Shown one piece after another: positions 2,481 to 31,751 of a stretch of DNA of 32,000 nt. A program made the translations under genes and the position numbers. The notes below the pieces were generated by a model that made no database searches, was not told the DNA's origin, and worked only from the letters and a program-made list of their open reading frames with translations. Positions within the stretch are counted from its first letter, which is position 1. Each line of letters starts with the position of its first letter. The DNA is from Thermococcus camini. GTDB lineage: Archaea > Methanobacteriota_B > Thermococci > Thermococcales > Thermococcaceae. The stretch lies in contig NZ_LR881183.1 in NCBI RefSeq assembly GCF_904067545.1, forward strand, positions 406,277 through 438,276, written 5' to 3'.

Positions 2481-3843
2481 CAAGCCAGAAAAGGGTCTAC
2501 TAATTGAACTCCCAAATCCAGACCGGACAATGGGCAGGAGCGCGCTTGCCAGCTGGCTGGCCCCTAAGTACCGGTACTACGTCCAGGTCCAGGTAATGAC
2601 ACGGGAAGGTTTCAGAACCGTTTACCTGGGAAGTTCTCCGGGAAAAGTGCTCATTCCCAGTTCAAATCTCTCCGAAATCAAACGCTCCTGGAAAGACGTG
2701 AATCCAGCGGTTCTCATTGACGTATGGATTGTTGAACCCGAAACCGGGAAAACGTACGAGGTCGGGACGTTTAGCATAAGGCTTACTGAGAACTCGATCG
2801 AGGGCCTTCAGAGGTTCACTCCCAAATTCTCAAAGGGTGACCTCCACGATTTTTCGGTGGGTGGATTAGAGAGAACCTCCCCAATTACGCCCACTAGAGG
2901 ATTTTTTGCAGGTTATCGCTGGAGAACGAAGAGAGAATACCTTCGGGAGGACGACTATCCTGGTGGCATGTATCTTCCGGTTCTTATACTTGACAACGGG
3001 GAGGGACACGCCACAGTTCTTGGAGCTTACAAGGTTGAGGTCAGGGAGAGCTCATCCACTTCTTCTGGGCTTTCCATCGGTTTCTCGACCACGATAATCA
3101 GAGGGGCCCAACTGAGTAGTAAGGGCAAGTTCAGTATCAAAAGGGGTTTGGAGAACGGGGAGATACGGATTGAACTGAAAAAGGGCAATGAGTTTGTTAG
3201 GTCTATCATTGATGGTGAAGTAAAGAACGTCAAACCCGGCGATGTGGGAGTTATGGCTATAAAAGGAGAGCCATACATCGCCCTTCAGGTTCTCCAGAAG
3301 TGCTACGTTGATGAGTTTAGAAAGATGCACTGTTTTGACACAGACCAAGAGAGGGTGCTTATAACGGTTTCGGATGTTGAACGAACTTATGACTCCCGCA
3401 AAAAAGCCTACCTCATTAAAACTTTCTCCTTCGTGAACCCTCCAAGGAGCGTGTATCCTGCGGATAGCTTTGAGAGACTTGTCGATGACAACGCGAAGAT
3501 GGAGACACTAACAACACTCTACGGGGAAAAGCAGAACGGGAGATCTTCTCACATGGAGATTTTCCTGGACGAGTACGATACCTACTCAAACTCATACATC
3601 CCACTGCTCGCGGTGACCGTTGCCCTCCAGCCTGAGGCATGGCCGGCATTTTTGATAGGCTTAAGTGCAGTTGGGGGGATTTACATAACGAACGAGGGGC
3701 ATGAAAGGGCATTTGGGGCCTTTACGATTATGGATCAATCGGACTACACCAAGACCACCGTTAAGTACGCGAGTCTTGAGTATTCGGTGAAAGATTCCAA
3801 CCATCACACAAGGTTTCCCTTTGCATATCTGCGGTTTGAGTAG
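2452..3843 (+). CDS. Hypothetical protein (probable secreted or membrane-anchored protein; N-terminus likely supplied by the 2397 ORF fragment)
   Basis: 463-codon ORF from the track with no family I can recognise. It has Ser/Thr-rich stretches and a hydrophobic segment near the C-terminus (IPLLAVTVALQPEAWPAFLIGLSAVGGIYI). It is A/T-richer than the flanking genes. The track start (GTG 2452) has no SD of its own. Confidence 0.6.
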   Translation: MWLGPIGFFNKPEKGLLIELPNPDRTMGRSALASWLAPKYRYYVQVQVMTREGFRTVYLGSSPGKVLIPSSNLSEIKRSWKDVNPAVLIDVWIVEPETGKTYEVGTFSIRLTENSIEGLQRFTPKFSKGDLHDFSVGGLERTSPITPTRGFFAGYRWRTKREYLREDDYPGGMYLPVLILDNGEGHATVLGAYKVEVRESSSTSSGLSIGFSTTIIRGAQLSSKGKFSIKRGLENGEIRIELKKGNEFVRSIIDGEVKNVKPGDVGVMAIKGEPYIALQVLQKCYVDEFRKMHCFDTDQERVLITVSDVERTYDSRKKAYLIKTFSFVNPPRSVYPADSFERLVDDNAKMETLTTLYGEKQNGRSSHMEIFLDEYDTYSNSYIPLLAVTVALQPEAWPAFLIGLSAVGGIYITNEGHERAFGAFTIMDQSDYTKTTVKYASLEYSVKDSNHHTRFPFAYLRFE

Positions 3844-3910
3844 TACTTCTCTCTTTTTAACTTATTTTCTAGATAGTTCCAGCTCCCTTCACTACCCACC
3901 TTGGCACTCC

Positions 3911-3925
3911 AAAACTTTTATAAAA
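3911..3925 (+). promoter_or_regulatory. BRE/TATA promoter (AAAAC-TTTTATAAAA) upstream of the rpl10e leader
   Basis: Perfectly palindromic TATA box TTTTATAAAA at 3916-3925 with a purine-rich AAAAC just upstream. Applying the usual archaeal spacing of about 25 nt places the start site near 3947-3950. Confidence 0.5.
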
Positions 3926-3944
3926 GCGAGGGCAAGCTAAGTTT

Positions 3945-4095
3945 AGGCTTAGCTGTCATTGAGATTACTTCAGATGCCGATAACCCCTGAAGGGGTAACG
4001 GCCGAAGACCCGGCCCTCGGGCTGATGTCCGAAACCGGCGACGGGAGTAGGAAAAGCCCGTAAACCGATGCACTCGGAGGTCAGGCTCATTTGGA
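3945..4095 (+). ncRNA. GC-rich structured ~150-nt 5' leader of rpl10e, or an independent small RNA (unclassified)
   Basis: It lies between the predicted start site (~3948) and the rpl10e SD (GGAGGTGA 4092-4099). It has no coding potential on the + strand. Local hairpins include ccg-a-ta-a-cccc/UGAA/ggggtaacgg (3978-4002), acggg/11-nt loop/cccgt (4041-4061) and agctaag/tttagg/cttagct (3935-3954). No C/D or H/ACA boxes were found. Confidence 0.3.
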
Positions 4096-4104
4096 GGTGA
4101 GAGT

Positions 4105-4653
4105 ATGGGACTGAGACCAGCCAAGATTGATAGGGACGTTGACAAGCCCGCTTACACGAGGAGGAAGTACATCCGCGGTGCGCCCGGTCCGAGAATAACG
4201 ATCTTTGATATGGGCAACCTCTCAGCCGAGTTCGAGTACGAGGTCAGCCTTCACGCGGAGCAGGCCATGCAGATAAGGCAGAACGCCCTCGAGGCCATCC
4301 GTATCCAGGTGAACAGGTACCTCCAGAAGAACGTCGGAAGGAGCAACTACCACTTCAAGATAAGGGTTTACCCGTTCCAGGTTCTCAGGGAAAACCCGAT
4401 GGCAACCGGAAGGAAGGCCGACCGTTACGGAAATGGTATGAGGAGGCCCTTTGGAAAGCCGATTGGTTTAGCTGCCCGCGTCAAGAAGGACCAGAAGATC
4501 ATCACTGTCTGGGTGAATGAGAACCACCTCAAGTTCGCCCTTGGAGCGATGCACAGGGCCAAGATGAAGCTGCCCTACAGCGCCTACTACAGGATCTACG
4601 ACAAGGAAGGCAACGACATCACCAGCAAGGTTCTCTCGACCATGAAGCGCTGA
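4105..4653 (+). CDS. rpl10e: 50S ribosomal protein L10e (uL16)
   Basis: [38 protein letters not shown]... is the typical archaeal L10e/uL16 N-terminus. GGAGGTGA SD lies 5 nt upstream. T-rich tracts follow the stop. Confidence 0.95.
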
Positions 4654-4714
4654 AGCGCACCTTCTTCTTTGTTCTATTTTCGCGCGTTAGTACTTCCATA
4701 TGTTACCGCGCGGA

Positions 4715-4729
4715 GAAAACTTTTAAATA
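4715..4729 (+). promoter_or_regulatory. BRE/TATA promoter (GAAAAC-TTTTAAATA) for the 4761 membrane-protein gene
   Basis: The motif sits ~32 nt upstream of ATG 4761, with GGGGAGGGGG between them. Confidence 0.45.
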
Positions 4730-4760
4730 CTATTGCTGGAAGTTACTTCTGGGGAGGGGG

Positions 4761-5213
4761 ATGTTTAAGGAACATAGACAGGGGCACGTTTTCATTCCCG
4801 GTTTCATCCTTGCTACGATGCTTCTGTTGGTTCTCATGGTTGGTGGTTTTGACTATCTGGCCCAGCGTTATCCTGGGCTCATCGATATGCTCCCGGGCAT
4901 CACGGTGGAGTCTGACCCTACGTCTGGTGGACACATCTTCCTTGAATCATGGGGAAGGCTGTTTTATCCAATCCTTGTCGTGGCACTGCTCACTACAATC
5001 TTTCTGAAAAAGACGGGGCTTCCGGAGGATTCTTTTGTGATATCGAGCTTGGTCATTCCTCTCGTTGTTATTCTAACGGCACTTGCTGTTGTTGCTGTTT
5101 TTGGTGGCAATTGCGAATACGAGTTCGGGTTCTTTGCTATTTACCTGCTCTTTGTGCTTCCCTATCTTCTTGGGGCCTTAGGACACTACCTGCTCTCACG
5201 TCTGGTATGGTAG
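4761..5213 (+). CDS. Hypothetical integral membrane protein (about 4 TM segments)
   Basis: This 150-aa frame is the one supported by the upstream TATA and G-rich SD. It contains four clear hydrophobic helices (FIPGFILATMLLLVLMVGGF, FYPILVVALLTTIFL, VISSLVIPLVVILTALAVVAVFG, FGFFAIYLLFVLPYLLGALGHYLL). The competing track ORFs 4669..5007 and 4949..5242 lack start context. Confidence 0.6.
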   Translation: MFKEHRQGHVFIPGFILATMLLLVLMVGGFDYLAQRYPGLIDMLPGITVESDPTSGGHIFLESWGRLFYPILVVALLTTIFLKKTGLPEDSFVISSLVIPLVVILTALAVVAVFGGNCEYEFGFFAIYLLFVLPYLLGALGHYLLSRLVW

Positions 5214-5269
5214 CCTTTCTTATAATTCATAATGATTATTAACGATGCCACCCAACTTAGACTGGTGGG

Positions 5270-6415
5270 ATGATGGTAAGCTCAGGCTTTAGGGCAACCC
5301 TCCTCAAGCTCGGTCTGCCAGAGGACAGGCTGGCGGTTCTTGAGGGCAAGGGTGGAGTTGTGGAGGGGGAATTCAAGGGCATAAGATACGTCCGCTTTCG
5401 GGATTCCGCCAAAGGGTTCCGGCGCGGAACGGTTGTATTTGAGAACGGCGATGTTGTTCTGGGCTTCCCCCACATAAAGCGTATCGTCCAGCTGGAGAAG
5501 GGGGTAAAAAGGATCTTCAAAAACAGACCCTTCTACGTTGAGGAGAAGGTGGACGGCTACAACGTCCGCGTCGTGAAGGTGATGGACAGGGTTCTCGCTC
5601 TAACGAGGGGCGGCTTTATCTGTCCCTTCACGACGGAGAGGATACTGGACTTCATCAACGATGAGTTCTTCAAAGATTACCCCAACCTTGTCCTGGCCGG
5701 TGAGATGGCCGGGCCCGAAAGCCCGTACATCGTCGAGGGGCCGCCCTACGTGAAGGAGGACATAGAGTTCTTCCTCTTTGACATCCAGGAGAAGGGAACG
5801 GGAAGGAGCCTTCCTGTGGAGGAGAGGCTTAAGCTTGCCGAGGAGTACGGCATTCGTCACGTTGAAACTTTTGGCCTCTACGACCGCTCGAAGATTGAGG
5901 AGTTGCATGAGTTAATCGAAAGGCTGGGCAGGGAGAGGAGAGAGGGCATCGTTATGAAAACGCCCGATATGAAGAAAATCGCGAAGTATGTAACGCCGTA
6001 CGCCAACATCAACGACGTCAGGATAGGCTCGCACATATTCTTCGACCTGCCCCACGGCTACTTCATGGGGAGAATTAAGCGCCTCGCTTTCTACCTGGCC
6101 GAAAAGCACATCAAAGGCGAGGAGTTCGATGAGTACGCGAAGGCCCTCGGAAAGGCCCTCCTCCGGCCGTTCGTTGAGAGCATCCACGAGGTCGCCAACG
6201 GCGGCGAGGTCGAGGAGGTCTTTACGGTGAGGGTGAAGAGCATAAGCACCGCCCATAAAATGGTGACTCACTTCGAGAGGCTCGGTGTGAAGATCCACAT
6301 CGAGGACATAGAGGATCTGGGCAACGGCTACTGGAGGATAACATTCAAGAGGGTCTATCCCGATGCAACGCGCGAGATGAGGGAGCTGTGGAACGGCAGG
6401 GCGTTTGTGGATTGA
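5270..6415 (+). CDS. ATP-dependent RNA ligase, Pab1020/Rnl3 family (archaeal RNA-circularising ligase)
   Basis: Collinear along its length with my memory of Pyrococcus abyssi Pab1020 (MVSS.F...LGL.E.R...LE.KGG.VE.EF.G.RY.R..DSA...RRGTVVF). Nucleotidyltransferase motif I is EEKVDGYNVR (Lys codon 5546-5548). The C-terminus is ...ELWNGRAFVD. The start is probably the second ATG (5273). Confidence 0.9.
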   Translation: MMVSSGFRATLLKLGLPEDRLAVLEGKGGVVEGEFKGIRYVRFRDSAKGFRRGTVVFENGDVVLGFPHIKRIVQLEKGVKRIFKNRPFYVEEKVDGYNVRVVKVMDRVLALTRGGFICPFTTERILDFINDEFFKDYPNLVLAGEMAGPESPYIVEGPPYVKEDIEFFLFDIQEKGTGRSLPVEERLKLAEEYGIRHVETFGLYDRSKIEELHELIERLGRERREGIVMKTPDMKKIAKYVTPYANINDVRIGSHIFFDLPHGYFMGRIKRLAFYLAEKHIKGEEFDEYAKALGKALLRPFVESIHEVANGGEVEEVFTVRVKSISTAHKMVTHFERLGVKIHIEDIEDLGNGYWRITFKRVYPDATREMRELWNGRAFVD

Positions 6416-6802
6416 AGCGGCAGATTTCATGAAAATTATTCTACCAATTTGGATGGATAAGTAAAATCGGGGGACTTTAACTTGCGCCCCCACAAGTTAC
6501 TTGCACCCCTGCAAGTTAAGAGGCTTTCCCCAACCTTTGCGAAAGCAAAGGTTGATCAAAAAGTCTTCGCCGTTAAAAGGGTATGGAAATGTTTGCATGC
6601 TATTTTAATGATGTGTGTTTTAATGGGTTTGTATCAAATTTCATCGATTTTGGGCGTGTTTTGCTCCAACTCAGCGCCCGAAGGGCGCCAAAAATGAAAA
6701 ACATGAGTAAGAACTGTCAAGATTAAGAATAAACCCGTGTAAAAATTAGGCTCATTTAAATGGCATGCCGTTTTCGATGAAACATTCCCCAGAAAAGTTT
6801 CT

Positions 6803-7139
6803 TAACGTGGGGCAAAGCCCACTTTGGGGGTTTGAGACTGCAGGGAACTTTGCCTGCGCAAAGTTTCATCAAAGTTTGTGATTCCCGTTGGGGCTCTTCT
6901 ACAAAGGGATTTCACTTCCAAACTTGCCCGTAAAAGGTTGAATTCTCTAAGATAAAACTTTTCCCACGTGGGTTCTACTTGAACCGCGCTCCAAAGGGGT
7001 GCAAAAACGCTTGAACCTTCCTGGAACGCATCCTTAGAATGAATTCATTCTGCCCAAAAAGAAGTCCTCAAAGAAATCCACTCCAGAACACGCTTTTCAA
7101 GAGGAATCACAACCTTGATCAAACGTCGCGCAGGCGAAC
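6803..7139 (+). repeat. Repeat unit A (~335 nt, diverged copy)
   Basis: Aligns end to end with unit B. Shared blocks are gtggggc.aagccc.actt.gggggtttgaga, caaagtttgtgatt, gggttctactt.aaccgcgctcc, aaaaacgcttgaacc, tcctt.gaatgaat.c and gaatcac.aaccttgatcaaac.tcgcg. Confidence 0.8.
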
Positions 7140-7432
7140 AAGCTTTTAAAAAAGCTTGACCAAAAAGCCTTAACTGCCTAGAAGCGAGGAGTTAGAAGTT
7201 GGTAGCTCTTCTTGAGGTCATGCTCTGAATACAGGGGGTTTCAAGTCAGGTGCCAATGTTTCAAGTGAGAACCAGTTTTGGGTTCCTTTGATGAGGGTTT
7301 AACTTGAAAAAGACGCCCGCAGGGCATCAAAAAGGCAAACCTAACCCAAGAGTGAATTTTAGGCAAGTTCTTTATGTTGAACGCTCCAGTAATGATAAAC
7401 CCCTTGAAAATCGGCACGTCCAAATGGGGCTA

Positions 7433-7500
7433 CAAATTTTGATGAAACTTTGCGCAAGCAAAGTTTCTGGGGGGTGTGGGGGCGTTAGCCCCCCAGTAGT
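7433..7500 (-). repeat. Partial inverted copy of the 5' module of the repeat unit
   Basis: The reverse complement reads ggggggc-taac-gccccc-acaccccccagaaactttgcttgcgcaaagtttcatcaaaatttg. This matches unit A 6845-6879 (ggaactttgcctgcgcaaagtttcatcaaagtttg) nearly base for base. Confidence 0.65.
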
Positions 7501-7513
7501 TTAGAGGAAAAGC

Positions 7514-7850
7514 GGGGTTGTGGGGCGAAGCCCCACTTCGGGGGTTTGAGAGTACAGAGCAAGCTTTAAGAAAGCTTGACCAAAAGTTTGTGATTTTTTG
7601 AGGTAGTGCCCTTAAAGAGGGATTCATTTCAAAATCAGCCATTAGGAAGTTGGATCCCTCGAACAGATTTTTTCACATGGGTTCTACTTCAACCGCGCTC
7701 CTTCGGAGCGCTAAAAACGCTTGAACCCTTCTGAAAAGTTTCCTTGGAATGAATCCAACACTCACAAGCAAATTCCAGAGAATCCACTTAGGAACACTCA
7801 TTACAGACAGAATCACCAACCTTGATCAAACTTCGCGAAGGCGAAGTTTG
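7514..7850 (+). repeat. Repeat unit B (~335 nt); its first 46 nt are repeated exactly, inverted, at 29735-29780
   Basis: See unit A. It starts with ggggttGTGGGGCgaaGCCCCACttcgggggtttgagagtacagag (7514-7559) and ends with the 10-bp hairpin caaacttcgc-GAAG-gcgaagtttg (7827-7850). Confidence 0.8.
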
Positions 7851-7900
7851 CTTTGCAAAAAATTTGTACACCTCCCAACCCAAAAAAGGGTGGAACGGTT

Positions 7901-7917
7901 CGAAAGCCTTTTAAATA
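7901..7917 (+). promoter_or_regulatory. BRE/TATA promoter (CGAAAGCC-TTTTAAATA) for the SPOUT-rpl3 ribosomal-protein operon
   Basis: TTTTAAATA at 7909-7917 lies ~55 nt upstream of ATG 7973. It is the only strong TATA-like box between the repeats and the first operon gene. Confidence 0.45.
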
Positions 7918-7972
7918 GTCTCCATAGACCCCACTTCAGCGTTAAAGTACCCACAGCAAAGGATGACGGAAA

Positions 7973-8743
7973 ATGGCCTGGCACATCTTCATTCCAGATT
8001 CGCTCCTTGAAGAGACCGACGACCCCAAAATCAGAACGTACAAGGTTGGGCAGATAGCCAGGGCCGCTGCAATCTTCGGCGTTGAGCACGTGTGGGTTTA
8101 CAGGGCCGGCGGCAGGGACGGAAGGTTCATCAAAACGATCCTTGAGTATGCGGAAACGCCCCAGTACCTCAGAAAGAGGCTGTTCCCCCTCATGCCGGAG
8201 CTCCGCTATGTTGGCGTCATCCCGCCGCTGAGGACTCCCCACCACAAGCTTAAGGGGAAACCGAGGGTCGGGGAGATCCGCGAGGGCTTCGCCTTTCGGA
8301 AAGGAAGGAGAACCTACGCGGACATCGGCCTCGACGACCTCGCCGCGGTGGAGGGGGACGTTGAGGGGCGCGCAACTTTCAGAATAGTCTCAGCAAGGCC
8401 TCTCAGAGTGATACCAGCGAAGCCAGAGGAATACTGGGGGTACAGGGTGCATCTCACGAGGAAGTCACTGGCAAAAACACTTAAAAAGGCCAGGCTGGAT
8501 TTGGCGATTGCCACCTCCCGGAGGGGGCGTGACATTCGAGAGGTGAAGCTTCCCCCGCTCGAGGGGGAGGTCGGATTCGCCTTTGGCTCACCGAGGAAGG
8601 GCGTGATGGAGCTCCTCGGCGAGGAGGAATATGACTTTGATCTAATCCTCAACACCATTCCAAATCAGCGGACGGCCACCGTCCGCACCGAGGAGGCCGT
8701 GTTGGCCACACTCGCTGTGTTTAATCTCATAAGGAGGGATTGA
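7973..8743 (+). CDS. Putative SPOUT-superfamily RNA methyltransferase (COG2106/DUF171 family), the usual gene preceding rpl3 in archaea
   Basis: 256 aa starting [43 protein letters not shown]..., with ...[27 protein letters not shown] at the C-terminus (trefoil-knot-like end). Its stop lies 1 nt before the rpl3 ATG. Confidence 0.7.
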
Positions 8744-8744
8744 G

Positions 8745-9788
8745 ATGGGAAAAATACACAGGCCAAGGAGAGGTTCACTGGCTTACTCCCCGAGAAAGAG
8801 GGCTAGGAGCGTAGTCCCAAGAATCAAGAAGTGGCCGAAGGACAGCGAAGTCAGGATGCTCGGTTTCGCCGGCTACAAGGCTGGTATGACCCACATCCTC
8901 ATGATAGACGACAGGCCAGGGCTCACCAAGGGGAAGGAGATCTTCATGCCGGTCACGATAGTCGAGGTCCCGCCGCTCTTCGTCTACGGCATCAGGGCCT
9001 ACAGGCAGGGCTACCTCGGTCTCGAGACCGCCACCGAGGTCTGGTTCCACGAGCTCAACGACCACGTCAAGAGGCGCATAAAGACCCTGCCAAAGAACTA
9101 CGACGAGGAGGCCTTCAAGGCTAGGCTTGCCCAGCTTGAGGAGCTTATCGAGGGCGGCGAGATAGTTGACGTCAGGCTTCTCGTCCACACCCAGCCGTGG
9201 CTCATCAAGCTCAAGAAGAAGCCGGAGGTCATGGAGTACGCCATCGGTGGCGACGACATCAGGGCCAAGTTCGACTACGCCAAGGAGAAGATAGGCAAGG
9301 ATCTCCGTGCGAGCGAGGTTCTCCACGAGGGTGAGCTCCTCGACATCATAGCCGTCACCAAGGGTAAGGGAACCCAGGGTCCGGTCAAGCGCTGGGGTGT
9401 CAAGATACAGTTCCACAAAGCCCAGAGGGCTGGCAAGGCCAGGCACATCGGTAACCTCGGTCCGTGGCACCCGACCAGGGTCATGTGGACCGTCCCCCTC
9501 GCGGGTCAGATGGGCTTCCACCACAGGACCGAGTTCAACAAGAGGCTCATTGCCATAGGTGAGAACGGTAAGCTCAAGCTCGGTGACAAGAAGGAGATAG
9601 AGATCACCCCGAAGGGCGGCTTCCCGCACTACGGTGTCATAAGGAGCGACTTCCTCATGATACAGGGCACCGTTCCGGGAGCCTTCAAGAGGATCATCAG
9701 GGTCAGGCCGGCTATAAGGGCGCCGAAGAAGAGGCCGCCGGTTGAGAGGCCGCAGATAACCTACGTCAGTAGGGAATCCAAGCAGTGA
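8745..9788 (+). CDS. rpl3: 50S ribosomal protein L3 (uL3)
   Basis: [20 protein letters not shown]...GYKAGMTHI...[15 protein letters not shown]...; position in the operon. Confidence 0.97.
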
Positions 9789-24414: not shown

Positions 24415-27405
24415 TTAATACGTTAAGAAGAACATTTTAATTATAGAGTTCGTATCGATTTTATCATGTTTCATATTCTCGAAGATATTCTTAAGAAGAA
24501 TGGCACGGAGAATTTGGTCGTTTTTCTTATATTCCTTTATTGCTTTATAAATAACAACGGCGAGATCTGGATATGTGAGTTGTAGATAACTTCCTTTATA
24601 TAAATCTTCAATTTTATCTAATGCCATTGATGCGGCAATAAACTCCAAGACTATTTGAAAGTCGTGTTGACTTATTGGGACTGAATCTATAATTTGAAGA
24701 TAGGCTTCTTTGTATTTTCTCTCTAGTATATCCAGTAAAATGTGTATTTCGTTATATACAAAAGGAAATGTATCCCTTAAGATTAACTCTAGTTCTTTTA
24801 TGGAGTTCATAACACTTTTGGATATTTTAATGTTAAGTTTCAGTATCCTGTCTGAATAATATTTGACAAAAATTATCTCAGCAATTAGTGTCATTGTGTT
24901 CTCCGGAGGTAACATTAGTAGATATTCTTTAATTATTGGAGCGAATTCTATAAATTCTTTTACACTTTCATAGTTCAAACCATTTTTTATCACATTTATT
25001 CTCATGGAAAGATCATGCAATAATATCCAGTTTAATACTCTCTTTCCAGATGCGTTAAACTCTTTCTTCGAATATTTTAAAGCTAGAGATACATATTTTC
25101 TCGCTTCTTCGATATTTCCCAGAAACAGGAAAGCGAATGCAAGGGTGTAATAAGTTAGTCTAAAGCTACCAAAGATCCTCAATTCAAGCAATTGTTTTAT
25201 TCTTTTTTGTTTGTCTTCTTTGTTATCCCGTATGAAAACAGTGCTAAAGAGAGCGTTAACATCTTTGTCATTCTGTAGAAGTTCAAAATTGGCCTCTAAT
25301 TCATTTAAAAGTTTTTCAGCGTTCCTTAAAAATTGTATATTCTCTTTGGTAGCTTCACTGGTTAATGGTATAGGTGAGAAGGTAAATATCTCTCCAAGCT
25401 TGAGATACAGCTCCATCTTGGCATATTTATCAAACCATGTATCTCCTAAGATTCTTATGCTCTCTATCACTTGCTCTATTTTTCTGCTCATCATGTGCCT
25501 CTCTTTCTTCAAAAATGGGCTGTAGACCTTCTTTCTTATGGTGTTTACCTTAGTAGCTATTGTAAGAAACCTTACTATGTTATTGTCGGGTAACTCTTTG
25601 GTGAGTTCTCTTAAAATAGTGGAAATTTTATGATCTACTTCCTCAATAACATAGGGATTCAAAGCTGAACTATCACTATATTGCCATAAAAATGACAATA
25701 ATCTTAATTTGTCTTCTTGAGTTAGGGCAGAGACTCCACCTGTTTTTGAGAGTATATTAAATATAGCAATTGTAACTTCATATATGATTGGGGACTGACT
25801 ATTGGCTACTTGGATTCCTGCGTTTATTATCAATGTGAATGTAACTTCAAGTTCATAGTTATCTACTAATTCAAGAATTTTGAGAATACTAATTAATCCG
25901 TTCTCTGAGTATTCTGAAGTACTGTTTATAGCCTCTAGCATAAGATTTACAAACCTTGAAATCTCTGTTCGTATGGCATCATTCCTTATGAGATACGGTA
26001 TGAACGTTCTAAGATGAGAATATAGCTCAGTTAGATCGTATATCTCATCAACAATTTGTCTATCATGATCATTTAGTGAACCAACATATACATAGCCGTT
26101 AAGATGTACGATATCCTCGCTAAATATAAGATCTGTTAATTTATTTTTGCCCTGATCCCCATAAACTAGTCTCCCCAATATTTCTAGGATTGATTTTTCA
26201 AGAGGAGTCAGTAAAAGGGGTATTACTAGTTTGTTTCTCTTACTAAGCTCTTTATATATGAACTCGTTTGACTTAATCAGTCCCTTAAGATTATACATAA
26301 TCTGGTCCTGATTTTTGGATGCAACATCTAAGGGGTAATACACCCGATCTGCTTGAGGAAGGTTATCAAGGAGGTCATCAATGTTTACTTTGAGATTAGT
26401 GGATACTTTTGCGAGCATAACAGCAAACCCCGGGAGTCCCGAAGTAAGTGCTTTTAATTTTTCGCCATAGTTCGGATCTATATTAATTCCATTTGAGTGG
26501 ATAATATCTAAGAATTTTTTGCTATCAATAATCGGGCCGATGAATATGACTTGTTCCGAACTTTCAATGAGAGTGTGTTCACTAAGAATGCTTCTTACAT
26601 ACTCAGGAGAATTTAGGGTAAATTGTTTTCCCTCATTTGCTAACTTTTCTATGGGAATTCTGTTAACTATAATTACCCTACTTCCTAGATTTGAGAGTTC
26701 AGTAATTAATTTGGATAGCACATTTCGCTCGGATAGAGAGTAGTCCATATAGTCGTCGATTAAAAACACAAATTTTGAAGCTTTAGATTTTACTTTTGAA
26801 TCCTTGTAGGAGGTATATAGTTCTCTGCCTGTCTTCCATATGTTTCCTATTGCCGATATTCCTTCAAAAATTGTCATTCCAATTACTATAGACTGAGTTA
26901 TATCCAGGATTTTATCAAATGGCTCTTTCTCTATAATGGACTTTAGCTTAATTGAGATGTGCTGAAGATTCACGCCTCTTATCCCGATTATCTCTAGCAG
27001 AGTTTTTATTGAGTTGTCAACTGTGTTGACGTATTCCTCTATGTTTGAAACATTAGAGATGATATCCGTAATTTTTTCTAGAATTCCTTGAGAAGTGGCA
27101 GCCTCTACAACCTGCAAGACAAGAGACCTTTCGCTCTCAGAGATCATCTTGATTGGAACTAACGGCATGTAAAATGGATTTCCATGGTTATCAACAATCT
27201 TCTTTAATTGAGGTTGGGCAGAATAATGTCTGGGAGACAATATTATAGGTATATACCCTTCTTCTCTTGCCATTTTCATGGCTATATATCGTGCCAGAGT
27301 ACTCTTGCCACTTCCAGGTAATCCGAGTATCATGACTGGGTTTCCTTCTTTTAGTTGTTTCAGGATGTGTTCCTCTTTCCCAGTAACCACGTATCGTTGC
27401 ATCAT
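24415..27405 (-). CDS. 996-aa NB-ARC-like STAND P-loop NTPase with a long C-terminal helical (TPR-like) region; strongly AT-rich
   Basis: Motifs occur in NB-ARC order: Walker A GLPGSGKST (res 28-36, nt 27298-27324), Walker B FVFLIDDY (res 212-219, nt 26749-26772), GSRVIIVNR (res 241-249), VIFIGPIIDSKKFLDII, and SGLPGFAVMLA (res 322-332, GLPLA-like). About 650 aa of helical repeat-like sequence follows (e.g. YYTLAFAFLFLGNIEEARKYVSLALKY). Codons are overwhelmingly A/T-ending, unlike all neighbouring genes. Confidence 0.8.
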   Translation of the reverse strand: MMQRYVVTGKEEHILKQLKEGNPVMILGLPGSGKSTLARYIAMKMAREEGYIPIILSPRHYSAQPQLKKIVDNHGNPFYMPLVPIKMISESERSLVLQVVEAATSQGILEKITDIISNVSNIEEYVNTVDNSIKTLLEIIGIRGVNLQHISIKLKSIIEKEPFDKILDITQSIVIGMTIFEGISAIGNIWKTGRELYTSYKDSKVKSKASKFVFLIDDYMDYSLSERNVLSKLITELSNLGSRVIIVNRIPIEKLANEGKQFTLNSPEYVRSILSEHTLIESSEQVIFIGPIIDSKKFLDIIHSNGINIDPNYGEKLKALTSGLPGFAVMLAKVSTNLKVNIDDLLDNLPQADRVYYPLDVASKNQDQIMYNLKGLIKSNEFIYKELSKRNKLVIPLLLTPLEKSILEILGRLVYGDQGKNKLTDLIFSEDIVHLNGYVYVGSLNDHDRQIVDEIYDLTELYSHLRTFIPYLIRNDAIRTEISRFVNLMLEAINSTSEYSENGLISILKILELVDNYELEVTFTLIINAGIQVANSQSPIIYEVTIAIFNILSKTGGVSALTQEDKLRLLSFLWQYSDSSALNPYVIEEVDHKISTILRELTKELPDNNIVRFLTIATKVNTIRKKVYSPFLKKERHMMSRKIEQVIESIRILGDTWFDKYAKMELYLKLGEIFTFSPIPLTSEATKENIQFLRNAEKLLNELEANFELLQNDKDVNALFSTVFIRDNKEDKQKRIKQLLELRIFGSFRLTYYTLAFAFLFLGNIEEARKYVSLALKYSKKEFNASGKRVLNWILLHDLSMRINVIKNGLNYESVKEFIEFAPIIKEYLLMLPPENTMTLIAEIIFVKYYSDRILKLNIKISKSVMNSIKELELILRDTFPFVYNEIHILLDILERKYKEAYLQIIDSVPISQHDFQIVLEFIAASMALDKIEDLYKGSYLQLTYPDLAVVIYKAIKEYKKNDQILRAILLKNIFENMKHDKIDTNSIIKMFFLTY

Positions 27406-28257: not shown

Positions 28258-28479
28258 ATGGAGCTTCATGCGGTCATATGGGAGGAAGAGGGAACATACA
28301 TAATCAGAGAGGTTTTTACGGGAGTCACAACGCAGGGGGAGACCCTGGAGGAGGCTATTGAAAATCTAAAGGAGGCCGTTGAGCTTTACCTTGAGGAATT
28401 TCCTGAGCTGAGGGAGGAACTGGAAAAAATCAAGTTTGTGGGCGATTTCAATGTCCAGATTGCCAAGGCTCTCGGGTGA
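28258..28479 (+). CDS. hicB: HicB-like antitoxin (UPF0150/HicB N-terminal domain only, 73 aa)
   Basis: MELHAVIWEEEGTYIIREVFTGVTTQGETLEEAIENLKEAVELYLEE... matches the HicB/UPF0150 pattern (a beta-rich start followed by the GxTxEEAxxNxxEAxxxxxE helix). Paired and overlapping with a HicA-like ORF. Confidence 0.75.
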   Translation: MELHAVIWEEEGTYIIREVFTGVTTQGETLEEAIENLKEAVELYLEEFPELREELEKIKFVGDFNVQIAKALG

Positions 28480-28690
28480 GCAAGTTATTAAAGTCCTCGT
28501 CAAAAAGTTCGGTTTTGAGGTATCCAGACAGAGAGGAAGCCATGTGGTTCTGGTTAAGTATAAAGACGGCAGGAAGATAGGAACCGTTGTTCCCCTTCAT
28601 AAAGAGTTAAAAGCGGGAACACTTATGGGTGTTCTAAAACTGACTGGAATCGAAAAAGATGAATTTATGGAAGCTTTGAATGATCCCTAG
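28451..28690 (+). CDS. hicA: HicA-like mRNA-interferase toxin (YcfA/HicA family, 79 aa)
   Basis: MSRLPRLSGEQVIKVLVKKFGFEVSRQRGSHVVLVKYKDGRKIGTVVPLHKELKAGTLMGVLKLTGIEKDEF. It has the conserved ...G.....RQ.GSH..L... core and ends ...PxHxxELKxGTLxxIL. ATG 28451 lies within the track ORF 28436..28690. Confidence 0.78.
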   Translation: MSRLPRLSGEQVIKVLVKKFGFEVSRQRGSHVVLVKYKDGRKIGTVVPLHKELKAGTLMGVLKLTGIEKDEFMEALNDP

Positions 28691-28699
28691 GTGATGCTC

Positions 28700-29704
28700 A
28701 TGGCGAGGGACGAAGTGAGGAGAATCCTTCCGGCTGACGTAAAGCGAGAGGTTCTGGTTAAGGACGAGAAAGCTGAAACTAACCCAAAGTGGGGCTTTCC
28801 ACCCGAGAAGAGGCCAATGGAGATGCACATGCAGTTTGGCATAATCAACCTCGACAAGCCGCCTGGGCCGACGAGCCACGAGGTCGTTGCCTGGATCAAA
28901 AGGCTCTTCGACCTGAACAAGGCCGGCCACGGCGGAACCCTCGACCCCAAGGTCAGCGGTGTTCTGCCGGTTGCCCTTGAGAGGGCAACTAGGGTCGTCC
29001 AGGCCCTTTTGCCTGCGGGAAAGGAGTACGTCGCGTTGATGCACCTCCATGGGGACGTTCCAGAGGATAGGATTAGAGCGGTTATGAGGGAGTTTGAAGG
29101 GGAGATAATCCAGAGGCCGCCCCTGAGGAGCGCGGTCAAGAGAAGGCTCAGGACGAGAAAGGTTTACTACATTGAGATACTGGAGATAGAGGGCAAGGAC
29201 GTGCTCTTCCGCGTTGGAGTTGAGGCGGGAACCTACATAAGGTCGCTCATCCACCACATCGGTCTTGCCTTGGGTGTCGGTGCCCACATGGCCGAGCTGA
29301 GGAGAACGAGGAGCGGCCCCTTCAAAGAGGATGAAACTCTGGTGACCCTTCACGACCTCATTGACTACTACCACTTCTGGAAGGACGATGGTATCGAGGA
29401 GTACTTCCGCAAGGCAATACAGCCGATGGAGAGGGCCGTTGAACACCTGCCGAAGGTCTGGATTAGAGATTCGGCCGTTGCGGCGGTAACCTACGGCGCC
29501 GACCTTGCCGTTCCGGGAATAGTCAAGGTTCACAAGGGCATCAAGAGGGGCGACCTCGTTGCGGTCATGACTCTCAAGGACGAGCTGGTGGCACTCGGTA
29601 AGGCCACGATGGCGAGCGGGGAGATGCTCCAGAAGGGCAAGGGGATAGCGGTTGATGTTGACAAGGTCTTCATGCCGAGGGACTGGTACCCGAGGCTCTG
29701 GTAA
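28700..29704 (+). CDS. cbf5: tRNA/rRNA pseudouridine synthase Cbf5 (H/ACA RNP catalytic subunit, TruB family)
   Basis: MARDEVRRILPADVKREVLVKDEKAETNPKWGFPPEKRPMEMHMQFGIINLDKPPGPTSHEVVAWIK...GHGGTLDPKVSGVLPV (catalytic Asp)...PUA domain...MPRDWYPRLW. From memory this is near-identical to Pyrococcus furiosus Cbf5. The track ORF begins at GTG 28691. Confidence 0.96.
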   Translation: MARDEVRRILPADVKREVLVKDEKAETNPKWGFPPEKRPMEMHMQFGIINLDKPPGPTSHEVVAWIKRLFDLNKAGHGGTLDPKVSGVLPVALERATRVVQALLPAGKEYVALMHLHGDVPEDRIRAVMREFEGEIIQRPPLRSAVKRRLRTRKVYYIEILEIEGKDVLFRVGVEAGTYIRSLIHHIGLALGVGAHMAELRRTRSGPFKEDETLVTLHDLIDYYHFWKDDGIEEYFRKAIQPMERAVEHLPKVWIRDSAVAAVTYGADLAVPGIVKVHKGIKRGDLVAVMTLKDELVALGKATMASGEMLQKGKGIAVDVDKVFMPRDWYPRLW

Positions 29705-29734: not shown

Positions 29735-29780
29735 TCTCTGTACTCTCAAACCCCCGAAGTGGGGCTTCGCCCCACAACCC
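29735..29780 (-). repeat. Exact 46-nt inverted copy of the repeat-unit core (partner 7514-7559)
   Basis: ctctgtactctcaaacccccgaagtggggcttcgccccacaacccc is the reverse complement of 7514-7559, 46/46 by hand comparison. It contains the hairpin GTGGGGC-TTC-GCCCCAC (29758-29774). Confidence 0.9.
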
Positions 29781-29923
29781 CTGAACCTTTGGTTGTACAA
29801 GTAACATCGTTTGTATCCTTTTTTGCTTTTACTCTGGCTTCTTTCGTCTCATTCTTGTCGTTTTGACACGGTTGGAAGTTGAAAATCCTACGAAAAAAAC
29901 GGAACTTATTCAAACTTATAATT

Positions 29924-29938: not shown

Positions 29939-29982
29939 GATTTTGACGTTACATGTAGTGATAATCTCCGGAGGTATGCCCA

Positions 29983-30174
29983 ATGGAAGGCTGGGCTAAG
30001 AAGGTTGGTGCGGTGTTGTTGCTCGCCATGCTGTTGAGTCTTCAGTTGATTGCCGCTCCACAGGCCGCGGCAATGACTGCCAACAATGCTAGTATAACCT
30101 TCAGGAGGGCTGTGGTTGCCTGGTACGATGACAAGGGCAGGCTTGAGATGAACGTGACGTGGATTAAAAGGTAG
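29983..30174 (+). CDS. Signal-peptide-bearing N-terminal part (63 codons) of a secreted glycoprotein; probably one gene with 30174..30872, interrupted at an A4 run
   Basis: MEGWAKKVGAVLLLAMLLSLQLIAAPQAAA|MTANNASITF...NVTWIKR*. The signal peptide has an AxA-like cleavage motif, and there are two N-x-S/T sequons. A strong SD lies 8 nt upstream. Confidence 0.6.
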   Translation: MEGWAKKVGAVLLLAMLLSLQLIAAPQAAAMTANNASITFRRAVVAWYDDKGRLEMNVTWIKR

Positions 30175-30872
30175 TGAACTTCACAAACCTGACGAAGGGC
30201 TGTCCGCTTTATCACACCAATGTAACGCCGAAGGTGAACGTTTCCGTGGTCACGCTTTACAACATGACGGAAAAGCACGAGCAAATGCTCTTTTTCAGGC
30301 TGAACTTCTACAATAGCACGTTCAACTATACCATGTACGCGCTCGTTTATCGCGCCGAGAGGAGCCAGTACAACTTCACTCTCGTTACGAGGATATTCAC
30401 CGACCCTAAGACTGGTGCTTATAAGGCTTACCTGACTGGAATGAACATTGCCCCAAATGATGAAAACAAGGTCGTTCCCGTTGGAGATACGATTATAACT
30501 AAGGACAACCTCACGCTTTCAGAATACTACTGGACTCTGAACAAGGTTCTCATGAAGCTCCGCAGGGGCGATGAGACGAACTGGGTCTGGGGCAGGAGTG
30601 CCTACGAGCTGAGGCACTTGTCACACCTAGTGAGGCTAAAACTACCAGAATACAACCAGGGGAAAGCAGTAGGAATGACAGTGGCTATGGATAGTGCAGG
30701 AGAACTAGCCTGCGATGTTATATGTCATTTGCTTATTGCAGGGGGAGTATGGGCGTGTTGCGCACTTTATCCTCCAGCGTGTCCAGTATGCATATTGGTC
30801 TATGAAGTCTTGGAGACTGGTCAATTAACATACGTATTTTGTTATGAGACCTGTGAAAGACTAGTGGGGTAG
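30174..30872 (+). CDS. Sequon-rich extracellular protein body with a Cys-rich hydrophobic C-terminal module (no signal peptide of its own)
   Basis: (V)NFTNLTKGCPLYHTNVTPKVNVSVVTLYNMTEKHEQ...FYNSTFNYT...YNFTLV...DNLTLS contains nine N-x-S/T sequons. The last 56 aa hold 8 Cys (ELACDVICHLLIAGGVWACCALYPPACPVCILVYEVLETGQLTYVFCYETCERLVG). The GTG start overlaps the TAG of the upstream ORF. Inserting one A at 30166-30169 fuses the two frames (..WIKKVVNFTNLT..). Confidence 0.6.
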   Translation: MNFTNLTKGCPLYHTNVTPKVNVSVVTLYNMTEKHEQMLFFRLNFYNSTFNYTMYALVYRAERSQYNFTLVTRIFTDPKTGAYKAYLTGMNIAPNDENKVVPVGDTIITKDNLTLSEYYWTLNKVLMKLRRGDETNWVWGRSAYELRHLSHLVRLKLPEYNQGKAVGMTVAMDSAGELACDVICHLLIAGGVWACCALYPPACPVCILVYEVLETGQLTYVFCYETCERLVG

Positions 30873-30888
30873 TTGGAGGTGGTGACCA

Positions 30889-31395
30889 ATGAAGGGCCAG
30901 ATTTTATATTCTCTTTTTTTACTCGCTATTGGAGTGGGAGTGCTTAACATCTTCGTGCCCTTGAGGGAGATGAATTACCTGACACTGGTAATTCTAATCT
31001 CGCTTCTCTTCCTCCGTGCAGTGCTTCCCAAACGGTTCGAAAACAGAACCATAACCTTTCTGTGGAATCTTTCAGTAATATTCATGATGGGCTCTTTAAT
31101 TTACCCGTACAATGAGCACCTCGCGTACTCTTACTTTGCCGGTGCGGGTGTGGTTGCAACATTCTACGCTTTTGCTGACAGGCTGTTCTACTATGCGCCC
31201 CAGATAACGTACTTCTGGATCGGCCTTGCAATAGGCTTTGTCTTATCACTTACAGTCTTTAGAGACGATGTTCGGGGCAATACTGGATTATTTCTCCTCC
31301 TTACGTTGGGATTTGGCCTTGCAACGCTCCTCATGGGAAAACTCGTTAGCTACAGGCCATTTTCTAAAAGATTTGATGGTGAAAACATTGAATAG
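30889..31395 (+). CDS. Hypothetical integral membrane protein (about 5 TM segments)
   Basis: 168 aa with hydrophobic helices throughout (ILYSLFLLAIGVGVLNIFV, LTLVILISLLFLRAVL, ITFLWNLSVIFMMGSLIY, AGAGVVATFYAF, YFWIGLAIGFVLSLTVF, GLFLLLTLGFGLATLLMG). GGAGGTGG SD is followed by ccaATG. Confidence 0.65.
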   Translation: MKGQILYSLFLLAIGVGVLNIFVPLREMNYLTLVILISLLFLRAVLPKRFENRTITFLWNLSVIFMMGSLIYPYNEHLAYSYFAGAGVVATFYAFADRLFYYAPQITYFWIGLAIGFVLSLTVFRDDVRGNTGLFLLLTLGFGLATLLMGKLVSYRPFSKRFDGENIE

Positions 31396-31473
31396 GGTTC
31401 TAACTCAGTCGCTGACCAATTCCTGGTGGAAAGGCCGGGTGAATAAAAGTTCGTCATTAGGGAGGTGAAGCCA

Positions 31474-31751
31474 ATGAACCTTCTTGACTTTGGTGCCTAC
31501 GCAGGCATCGTGGGGGAATAATTTACCTTTTTCTGCTTTTTGCCTTCAGGGATTCTTTTGCTGGCCGTGGTAGGATCTCGTGGGCACTCCAGTTGGAGAT
31601 GGCCTTCTTCATGGTGCTCATAGGCTTCCTTGTCTGGGGAACTCGCAACGATAGTATTCCATTCTACGTTCTGGGAGCGGCTGGGTGGATATGGCTTGCG
31701 GTGGTTATTGCGACGGTTTTGCTGTGGCTGGAGAGTGGTTCAAAGAAATAA
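31474..31751 (+). pseudogene. Small (about 92-aa, 3-TM) membrane protein interrupted by a frameshift in a G5 run
   Basis: ATG 31474 with a strong SD (GGAGGTGA, 31461-31468) gives MNLLDFGAYAGIVGE* (stop 31519-31521). Adding one G to G5 (31512-31516) gives MNLLDFGAYAGIVGGIIYLFLLFAFRDSFAGRGRISWALQLEMAFFMVLIGFLVWGTRNDSIPFYVLGAAGWIWLAVVIATVLLWLESGSKK*. The 3' part alone (ATG 31599..31751, 50 aa) falls below the track cut-off. Confidence 0.45.

Follow-up and report, generated by a model that had tools for sequence, protein, structure and literature searches.

Halocin C8 is made as a secreted precursor that is cleaved to yield a C-terminal peptide of 76 amino acids (aa), which lyses related archaea (bioRxiv 10.64898/2026.07.27.741052), and in the Thermococcales the hypervariable immunoglobulin (Ig)-domain modules termed VARTIG represent a secreted protein whose C-terminal part is shuffled and whose specific variants are followed by specific membrane families (PMC8416519). 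Here, a locus of Thermococcus camini is compared with these systems, as well as with the polymorphic toxin systems and the class II bacteriocin operons. The locus comprises three co-directed genes, a precursor gene and two membrane protein genes (gene 2 and gene 3), and lies in a 32,000-nucleotide (nt) stretch of contig NZ_LR881183.1 (positions 406,277 to 438,276, forward strand), which is called the window and whose numbering is used throughout. The three genes are flanked on one side by hicBA and cbf5 (28691..29704) and on the other by an MTS-type methyltransferase gene (from ~31813) with ribosomal protein genes downstream of it. A first-pass annotation of this DNA had proposed that an abrupt change of codon usage inside the open reading frame (ORF) 30174..30872 marks a swapped-in cysteine-rich hydrophobic C-terminal module followed by membrane immunity genes, an interpretation that is largely supported by the analysis. 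The locus is read, with a probability of roughly 0.6, as one copy, now decayed, of a polymorphic, Sec-secreted, halocin C8-like archaeocin-precursor system of hyperthermophilic archaea.

The layout resembles that of ProC8, the halocin C8 precursor of Natrinema sp. AS7092 (HalC8 + HalI), in being a secreted precursor with a Cys-rich hydrophobic C-terminal peptide of ~60–90 residues, the T. camini tail having 59 aa and 8 Cys, and in several paralogous members of the family a true TIGR04449 domain occupies precisely this place. It differs from ProC8 in that the signal peptide is of the Sec type and not of the Tat type, in that the N-terminal domain (N-domain) is the same for every module and so is probably not a specific immunity protein as HalI is, and in that no halR, halU or ATP-binding cassette (ABC) transporter genes (halT1-3) neighbour the T. 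camini locus, where co-varying small membrane genes are found instead. With the polymorphic toxin systems (CdiA-CT/CdiI, Rhs; Zhang et al. 2012) the family shares a conserved N-terminal part, exchangeable C-terminal modules, downstream genes that are matched to the module in types D and H, arrays of orphan modules and putative immunity genes, sharp recombination breakpoints and a change of composition where the module begins; unlike in those systems, the carrier is small (~240 aa) and has neither repeats nor a filament, the only export feature is the Sec signal, no secretion-system genes occur in the flanks within the window, the modules are hydrophobic disulfide-rich peptides rather than nucleases, deaminases or other enzymes, and the putative immunity proteins are integral to the membrane. 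As in class II bacteriocin operons, a small hydrophobic peptide would be made ribosomally and released from a leader or pro-region, a small multi-transmembrane (TM) gene for putative immunity stands directly downstream and orphan immunity genes are frequent, whereas the 200-aa, presumably glycosylated, folded pro-region with a Sec signal contrasts with the short double-glycine leader of those bacteriocins, the ABC exporter-peptidase is absent and the host is an archaeon. VARTIG offers the likeness of a variable C-terminal part with matched membrane-protein families in the Thermococcales, although the proteins are unrelated, VARTIG proteins being large multi-Ig proteins without a Cys-rich module or a link to halocin C8 and the precursors considered here having ~300 aa. 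Anchors of the PGF-CTERM type consist of a short TM segment with a tripeptide motif and a basic tail, in contrast to the T. camini tail with its 59 aa, 8 Cys, acidic end and lack of any NCBIfam match.

A homologue search with the repaired 296-aa precursor returned 71 proteins and a profile search 94, and five loci from metagenome-assembled genomes were returned by a scan of a genome collection. Besides numerous species of Thermococcus, the hosts include Pyrococcus yayanosii, Archaeoglobus and Ignisphaera aggregans, a crenarchaeon. Across 27 aligned sequences, identity is 53–80% over the signal peptide, the N-domain and the linker (LSHLVRLKLPEYNQxKAxGxTxxMD), as far as an invariant aspartate, Asp237, beyond which the sequences are unalignable. 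The pattern anticipated by the first-pass annotation, a conserved N-terminal part with C-termini that vary together with the downstream genes, was recovered, the conserved part comprising ~237 residues, and neither a uniformly conserved full-length protein nor a plain membrane anchor was observed. The N-terminus of the precursor, MEGWAKKVGAVLLL...AAPQAAA, lacks an RR motif and has the look of a Sec-type signal as read from the sequence, and the fused T. camini protein contains 11 N-X-S/T sequons, all within its first 178 residues. The AlphaFold model of the N-domain displays a beta-sheet followed by two long helices, with a predicted local distance difference test score (pLDDT) mostly between 70 and 94, and has no significant neighbour in the PDB. 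Since every kind of module is attached to the same N-domain, this domain is more likely to act as a carrier or pro-domain than to confer specific immunity. The linker represents the 5' edge of the exchangeable unit and, presumably, the processing region. Members from outside the Thermococcales (P0090, P0098, P0105 and P0111, from Archaeoglobus sp. and Ignisphaera aggregans) carry the precursor family together with module classes A, F and halocin C8-type, and the presence of the family in these hosts implies cross-phylum transfer among hyperthermophiles.

Beyond Asp237, at least nine unalignable classes of C-terminus were distinguished by eye and with hhalign, ranging from 59 to 120 residues, all of them hydrophobic and containing 8–23 Cys. 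Four members of one class group (P0004, P0005, P0020 and P0033) score 33–45 bits on the NCBIfam model TIGR04449 (halocin_C8_dom; cut-off 24), the start of the model coinciding with the first Cys, 4–11 residues past the invariant Asp, and three of these TIGR04449-positive members are named 'halocin C8-like domain-containing protein' by NCBI; the likeness to halocin C8 that had been pointed out for this locus thus holds for these members of the family and not for the T. camini module itself, which does not match the model. Classes A, F and halocin C8 are also joined to divergent N-domains in Archaeoglobus and Ignisphaera. The module of T. camini harbors, as had been noticed before, 8 Cys in the last 56 residues of the precursor (fused residues 244, 248, 259, 260, 267, 270, 287 and 291; nt 30711 onward) in the pattern CxxxC, CC, CxxC, CxxxC, and has an acidic end (...CYETCERLVG). 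A scan of this module with Pfam and NCBIfam detected no domain, a tblastn search against 18 related loci detected nothing, and a phmmer search with a 61-aa module query against 1.84 billion representatives gave a single match, a 3203-aa repeat protein that was judged spurious; on these sequence searches the module is a database singleton of a class not seen elsewhere. A kinship with the type D modules, which also have four Cys pairs and a similar end (...E[KR][FL]VG), was considered and is not supported by the hhalign profiles.

At every locus examined, at least one small, Cys-free gene for a multi-TM protein without a Pfam domain lies downstream of the precursor gene, and BLAST clustering assigned these genes to families that track the type of module across loci and chromosomal sites. 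The type D module is followed by the same pair of 63-aa and 105-aa proteins in four loci at two chromosomal sites (L002, L004, L007 and L009), the type H module by 6–7-TM proteins of 255–270 aa in L003, L012, L014 and L018, and the type A module, in the one locus examined (L012), by an 8-TM protein. Homologues of gene 2 with 65–83% identity are found as orphans next to vapBC in T. nautili, Thermococcus sp. 4557 and T. aggregans, with no precursor directly upstream and no remnant of a module detected upstream of these copies; in T. aggregans a type H precursor lies two genes downstream of the gene 2 homologue. The same surroundings form an island that recurs between a radical-SAM/DUF8061 gene, vapBC and ileS (L015-L018, ~3400-6500; L007, L010 and L011, ~3700-5800), which collects three families of orphan membrane genes, namely gene 2-like, 6–7-TM of ~260 aa and 8-TM of ~330 aa, and in some genomes also contains full precursor genes.

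Exchange of the cassette was observed at the orthologous cbf5-methyltransferase site of another Thermococcus (L009), where DNA homology to T. camini extends up to 30692 and is found again from 31492. The T. camini module and gene 2 stand in place of the type D module of L009 and its two membrane genes, and the gap in homology means that module and gene 2 were replaced as a block. Gene 3 has an intact homologue of 88 aa with 54% identity at the same place in L009, and it is shared with L009 and lies outside the swapped unit, the homology resuming at 31492; the cassette with membrane immunity genes proposed by the first-pass annotation retains module and gene 2 and loses gene 3, with the precursor itself frameshifted. 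Further different cassettes occupy the cbf5-methyltransferase site in L005 and L004. In Thermococcus thermotolerans, a main precursor of the halocin C8 type, one membrane gene and an orphan 3' fragment of a precursor follow one another; over 235 nt the orphan fragment is 100% identical to the main gene, the identity ends abruptly 10 nt past the start of the LSH codons, and the fragment then leads into another module (P0068), the breakpoint lying no more than 3 codons from the codon switch of T. camini (30618). Farther downstream, a further small membrane gene precedes a 53-aa chimeric scar ORF, in which the start of an immunity-like gene is fused to a halocin C8 tail (GAGVYTACQIGGAHICEKAGLC). 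The region as a whole (L010 6001-8850; CP102602) is a textbook displaced-module array. These comparisons show a unit of linker, module and membrane gene(s) that is exchanged by recombination within the conserved linker or N-domain. As a result, different module/putative immunity pairs are found at the same chromosomal site in different strains, with old modules and immunity genes accumulating as orphans.

Differential codon usage was also observed along the precursor gene, and was measured as the G+C fraction at third codon positions (GC3) against an amino-acid-specific expectation derived from the codon usage of 23 further genes in the window (mean gene GC3 0.77). In a sliding profile along the 232-codon ORF 30174..30872, GC3 is 0.70–0.80, drops to ~0.40–0.50 at ~30400–30500, returns to 0.75–0.90 and remains at 0.25–0.40 from ~30620 to the stop. 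The profile lies at 0.80–0.90 over 30534-30638 and at 0.25–0.40 over 30639-30863. The N-terminal part and the last 84 codons differ strongly (0.69 vs 0.36; Fisher p = 4e-7), and none of the 84-codon windows in the background genes has a GC3 below 0.48. Given the z-scores of the composition-controlled test (Table 1), the switch is not a by-product of amino-acid composition, which confirms both the switch reported at ~30618 and its continuation as A/T-leaning usage into the next two genes. The earlier, shorter drop in the N-domain covers the more variable residues ~139–174, and the orphan fragment of T. thermotolerans has its 5' end at the same residue (~138), which suggests a second recombination-prone segment. 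At the protein level, the boundary between conserved and variable sequence lies at Asp237 (30690-30692), 24 codons 3' of the codon switch. Each of the 15 gene copies examined shows the GC3 drop, independent of the module: N-domains range from 0.41 to 0.69 (0.54–0.69 without the truncated orphan fragment of L010), linkers from 0.32 to 0.48 with a single exception of 0.76, and modules from 0.28 to 0.38 in 13 of the 15 copies, the remaining two being L004 (0.47) and the split copy of T. cleftensis (0.52, first 21 codons). The membrane genes are intermediate (0.40–0.66) and the housekeeping neighbours are at 0.70–0.74, the modules lying below even the membrane genes. Since the drop is found in all 15 copies, it is no mark of a recent event in T. 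camini; it is the signature of the exchangeable unit as a class, that is, of an AT-leaning pool, the protein-conserved linker included, that circulates horizontally. The view that the switch marks a swapped-in module accordingly stands as regards its position, at which the orphan of T. thermotolerans breaks, and falls as regards a recent swap.

Table 1. Features of the T. camini locus in window coordinates, with observed and expected GC3.
Feature	Positions	Strand	GC3 observed	GC3 expected	z	Basis
Shine-Dalgarno-like GGAGGT + CCA, directly 5' of the precursor ATG	29970..29982	+				read directly
Precursor 5' fragment, 63 aa: Sec-type signal peptide MEGWAKKVGAVLLLAMLLSLQLIAAPQAAA and first ~33 residues of the N-domain	29983..30174	+				
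Frameshift site, AAAA run	30166..30169	+				compared with homologues and Logan assembly
Remainder of the conserved N-domain, with a low-GC3 patch inside	30174..30617	+	0.68			
Low-GC3 patch of the N-domain	30396..30503		0.43	0.75	-4.6	
Segment between patch and linker	30504..30617		0.79	0.79	0.1	
Linker LSHLVRLKLPEYNQGKAVGMTVAMD, A/T-ending codons, last residue invariant Asp237 (30690-30692)	30618..30692	+	0.39	0.77	-4.4	
C-terminal Cys-rich hydrophobic module, 59 aa + stop (GC3 for 30693-30869)	30693..30872	+	0.31	0.73	-7.5	
Swapped cassette (module + gene 2), without DNA homology to the orthologous L009 locus	30693..31491	+				
Shine-Dalgarno-like motif of gene 2	30875..30888	+				read directly
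Gene 2, 168 aa, ~4 hydrophobic segments, 0 Cys, intact, putative immunity protein	30889..31395	+	0.48	0.73	-7.4	
Shine-Dalgarno-like motif of gene 3	31460..31473	+				read directly
Gene 3, ~92 aa and 3 TM with a base put back at GGGGG 31512-31516	31474..31751	+	0.53	0.70	-3.4	

The copy of T. camini itself seems to be decayed. As deposited, the precursor is split into 29983..30174 and, in the -1 frame, 30174..30872, the latter having a 100% identical database entry, a T. camini hypothetical protein. The 5' fragment aligns with residues 1–62 of all full-length homologues and closes at TAG 30172-30174 because of a frameshift, T. camini having ATTAAAAGGTAGTG where homologues have AT[TC]AACAAGGT[NG]GTG (also given as ATTAACAAGGTGGTG), with one base missing; the frame downstream of the shift is open and conserved. 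Gene 3 as it stands meets a stop at 31519-31521. The 295-aa fused protein and the 3-TM gene 3 product described by the first-pass annotation consequently exist only with one base restored at the AAAA run and at the GGGGG run, respectively, the precursor being split and gene 3 interrupted in the deposited sequence; the multi-TM character of gene 2 is borne out by its ~4 hydrophobic segments, and the GGAGGT, 4–5 bases and CCAATG ahead of all three genes were verified by direct reading. An independent Logan assembly (run ERR2021999; L006) is 100% identical over 2249 nt, both deletion sites included, and both 1-nt deletions are for this reason most likely real. The T. camini precursor is cut off after residue 63, the remaining ORF is without a signal peptide, and the precursor is probably non-functional; because of the deletion the peptide is most likely no longer made, so that T. 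camini most likely lost the toxin and kept the putative immunity gene 2. Truncated or split copies are frequent in the family, such as P0016, P0041, P0053, P0055, P0060 and L012 8147-9216, the last of which is a second, tandem precursor downstream of CL1_0815 in Thermococcus cleftensis (CP003651), split in two ORFs inside its type H module.

An intact member of such a system would be exported via its Sec signal peptide, its conserved N-domain would be N-glycosylated, and cleavage near the invariant Asp at the end of the linker would release a small disulfide-rich hydrophobic peptide that would attack the envelope or membrane of related cells, the producer being protected by the small Cys-free multi-TM protein encoded just downstream. 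The architecture and its exchange emerge from the comparison of the loci, and by analogy with halocin C8 we infer that the precursor is secreted and cut at the Asp, that its peptide kills and that gene 2 protects. Several observations weigh against this reading. At E <= 1 the HalI model PF22862 (Hac8_like_N) matches neither the T. camini protein nor a single one of the 27 aligned members, and neither the last 84 aa of T. camini nor the fused protein has a match to TIGR04449 at E <= 10 or E <= 1. In hhalign, the T. camini module reaches a probability of 2.3% against 10 halocin C8-type modules and <3% against type D, and it is modelled by AlphaFold at a pLDDT of ~30, so that only its place in the architecture argues for its toxin nature. 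The homology of gene 2 to the T. nautili and other orphan copies begins only 17 nt 5' of its ATG, and module and gene 2 may have been joined independently; with the T. camini module a singleton, its pairing with gene 2 is putative and indicated only by adjacency and block replacement. Near the cassette no transporter, protease or regulator was found.

The same facts could belong to a surface glycoprotein whose variable hydrophobic C-terminus holds it in the membrane and pairs with variable membrane proteins for self/non-self recognition or adhesion, without a diffusible toxin, an explanation that appears unlikely. The C-terminal modules are indeed hydrophobic, that of T. camini with at least one Kyte-Doolittle-predicted TM segment, the N-domain is heavy in glycosylation sites like archaeal surface proteins, no toxin enzyme domain is present, and variable modules with co-varying membrane partners would be expected of a recognition system too; for VARTIG, another variable module of the Thermococcales with co-varying membrane proteins, a toxin role has been discussed beside a role in innate immunity (PMC8416519). 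However, by the TIGR04449 model four of the modules are true halocin C8 domains, and the halocin C8 peptide acts as an antimicrobial after its release (bioRxiv 10.64898/2026.07.27.741052), modules of 60–120 aa with 8–23 Cys are unlike simple anchors, the acidic end of the T. camini tail is not a basic stop-transfer sequence, no PGF-CTERM or other sorting-signal model in NCBIfam was matched, and the retention of orphan immunity-like genes without the large protein fits defence against a toxin better than a role as recognition partner.

Still less probable is an expressed T. camini cassette, in which the 1-nt gaps would be artefacts of sequencing, or slippage of the ribosome or of transcription would get past them and give phase-variable expression. 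Both gaps lie in short homopolymers (AAAA 30166-30169 and GGGGG 31512-31516), the same correction of one added base repairs both, the strong GGAGGT..CCAATG starts are kept in all three genes and the frame past the shift is open and conserved. Yet the identity of the independent assembly at both sites speaks against artefacts, and as homologues have AACAAG at the first site, loss of the C is a simpler explanation than a miscounted run; no obvious split genes were noticed in window positions 4000-8800, the sole part read for splits, and decayed copies are common in the family. Judged from the sequence, a canonical X XXY YYZ slippery heptamer is lacking at both sites and the runs fall far short of the tracts on which transcriptional slippage is known to occur, and programmed frameshifting is unlikely. 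A low GC3 unrelated to exchange, arising from translational or mRNA-level selection on Cys-rich tails or AT-rich accessory genes, with the tails diverging in place by fast point mutation, is the most improbable of the explanations considered. It would agree with a GC3 drop in every family member whatever the module, and with the low GC3 of the putative immunity genes and of a nearby STAND island. What contradicts it is that one module class cannot be aligned with another and their lengths range from 59 to 120 aa, that N-domains which have diverged from one another carry the same types A, F and halocin C8 across phyla (Thermococcus, Archaeoglobus and Ignisphaera), that 100% identity gives way sharply to unrelated sequence inside the single genome of T. 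thermotolerans, that T. camini and L009 differ by a block replacement at an orthologous site, and that low GC3 starts already in the protein-conserved linker, as a recombination unit predicts.

No signs of a mobile element were detected around the cassette, where tRNA genes, flanking direct or inverted repeats and Rfam families are all absent. An exact 44-nt repeat (CTGTACTCTCAAACCCCCGAAGTGGGGCTTCGCCCCACAACCCC) containing a GGGGC-TTCG-CCCC hairpin occurs in two intergenic regions, at 29738-29781 (+), just upstream of the cassette, and at 7514-7557 (-); it is not present in the fetched loci of other species, and may represent a small repeated element or a terminator. Its second copy falls within a region of ~1.2 kb (6500-7750) that has no ORF of at least 90 aa and no Rfam or tRNA match. 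Directly upstream of cbf5, an overlapping HicB-like (DUF7387/HicB) and HicA toxin-antitoxin pair is located at 28258-28690, with a counterpart at the equivalent place in L009 (2811-3240). The STAND island mentioned above contains a 996-aa ORF at 24415-27405 (-) with an N-terminal nSTAND3/AAA P-loop domain (PF20720, E 4e-8) and weak TPR matches, in AT-rich surroundings (GC 0.29–0.39 vs 0.45–0.60 in the flanks; GC3 0.33); the ORF has the appearance of a STAND NTPase gained by horizontal transfer and is possibly a defence gene.

A search of the full-text literature on halocin C8 or archaeocins in the Thermococcales, which did not cover Makarova et al. 2019, found no description of this architecture. 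The system is nevertheless not wholly new to the Thermococcales, halocin C8-like domains in Thermococcus being already present in the NCBI annotation, so that the earlier impression of an undescribed system in this order applies to the architecture and not to the domain. The halocin C8 family has reportedly been expanded to diverse archaea by Makarova et al. 2019, a work that may already describe part of the precursor family. To our knowledge, very few archaeal antimicrobial peptides have been described, nearly all of them haloarchaeal, and we know of no peptide toxin characterised together with its immunity protein in a hyperthermophile.

Tentatively, halocin C8 may be one class in a larger polymorphic archaeocin system of hyperthermophilic archaea spanning two phyla, in which one glycosylated, Sec-exported pro-domain would serve at least 10 unrelated disulfide-rich membrane-active peptides, immunity would be provided by module-matched membrane proteins and not by the pro-domain, and exchange would proceed via the linker with its AT-rich codons, T. 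camini possessing the only known copy of its module, in a freshly inactivated gene, with an immunity gene of the gene 2 family that circulates as an orphan in other Thermococcus. If this is true, pro-domains of more than one kind would deliver peptides of the halocin C8 type, and immunity could reside in separate membrane proteins. The T. camini window itself carries a smaller message, a decayed putative toxin gene with a retained putative immunity gene being the expected end state of an arms race. The precursor family is a clear archaeal case of cassette exchange with a defined breakpoint and offers a ready set of putative natural toxin/immunity pairs in hosts that include Thermococcus, for which genetic tools exist.

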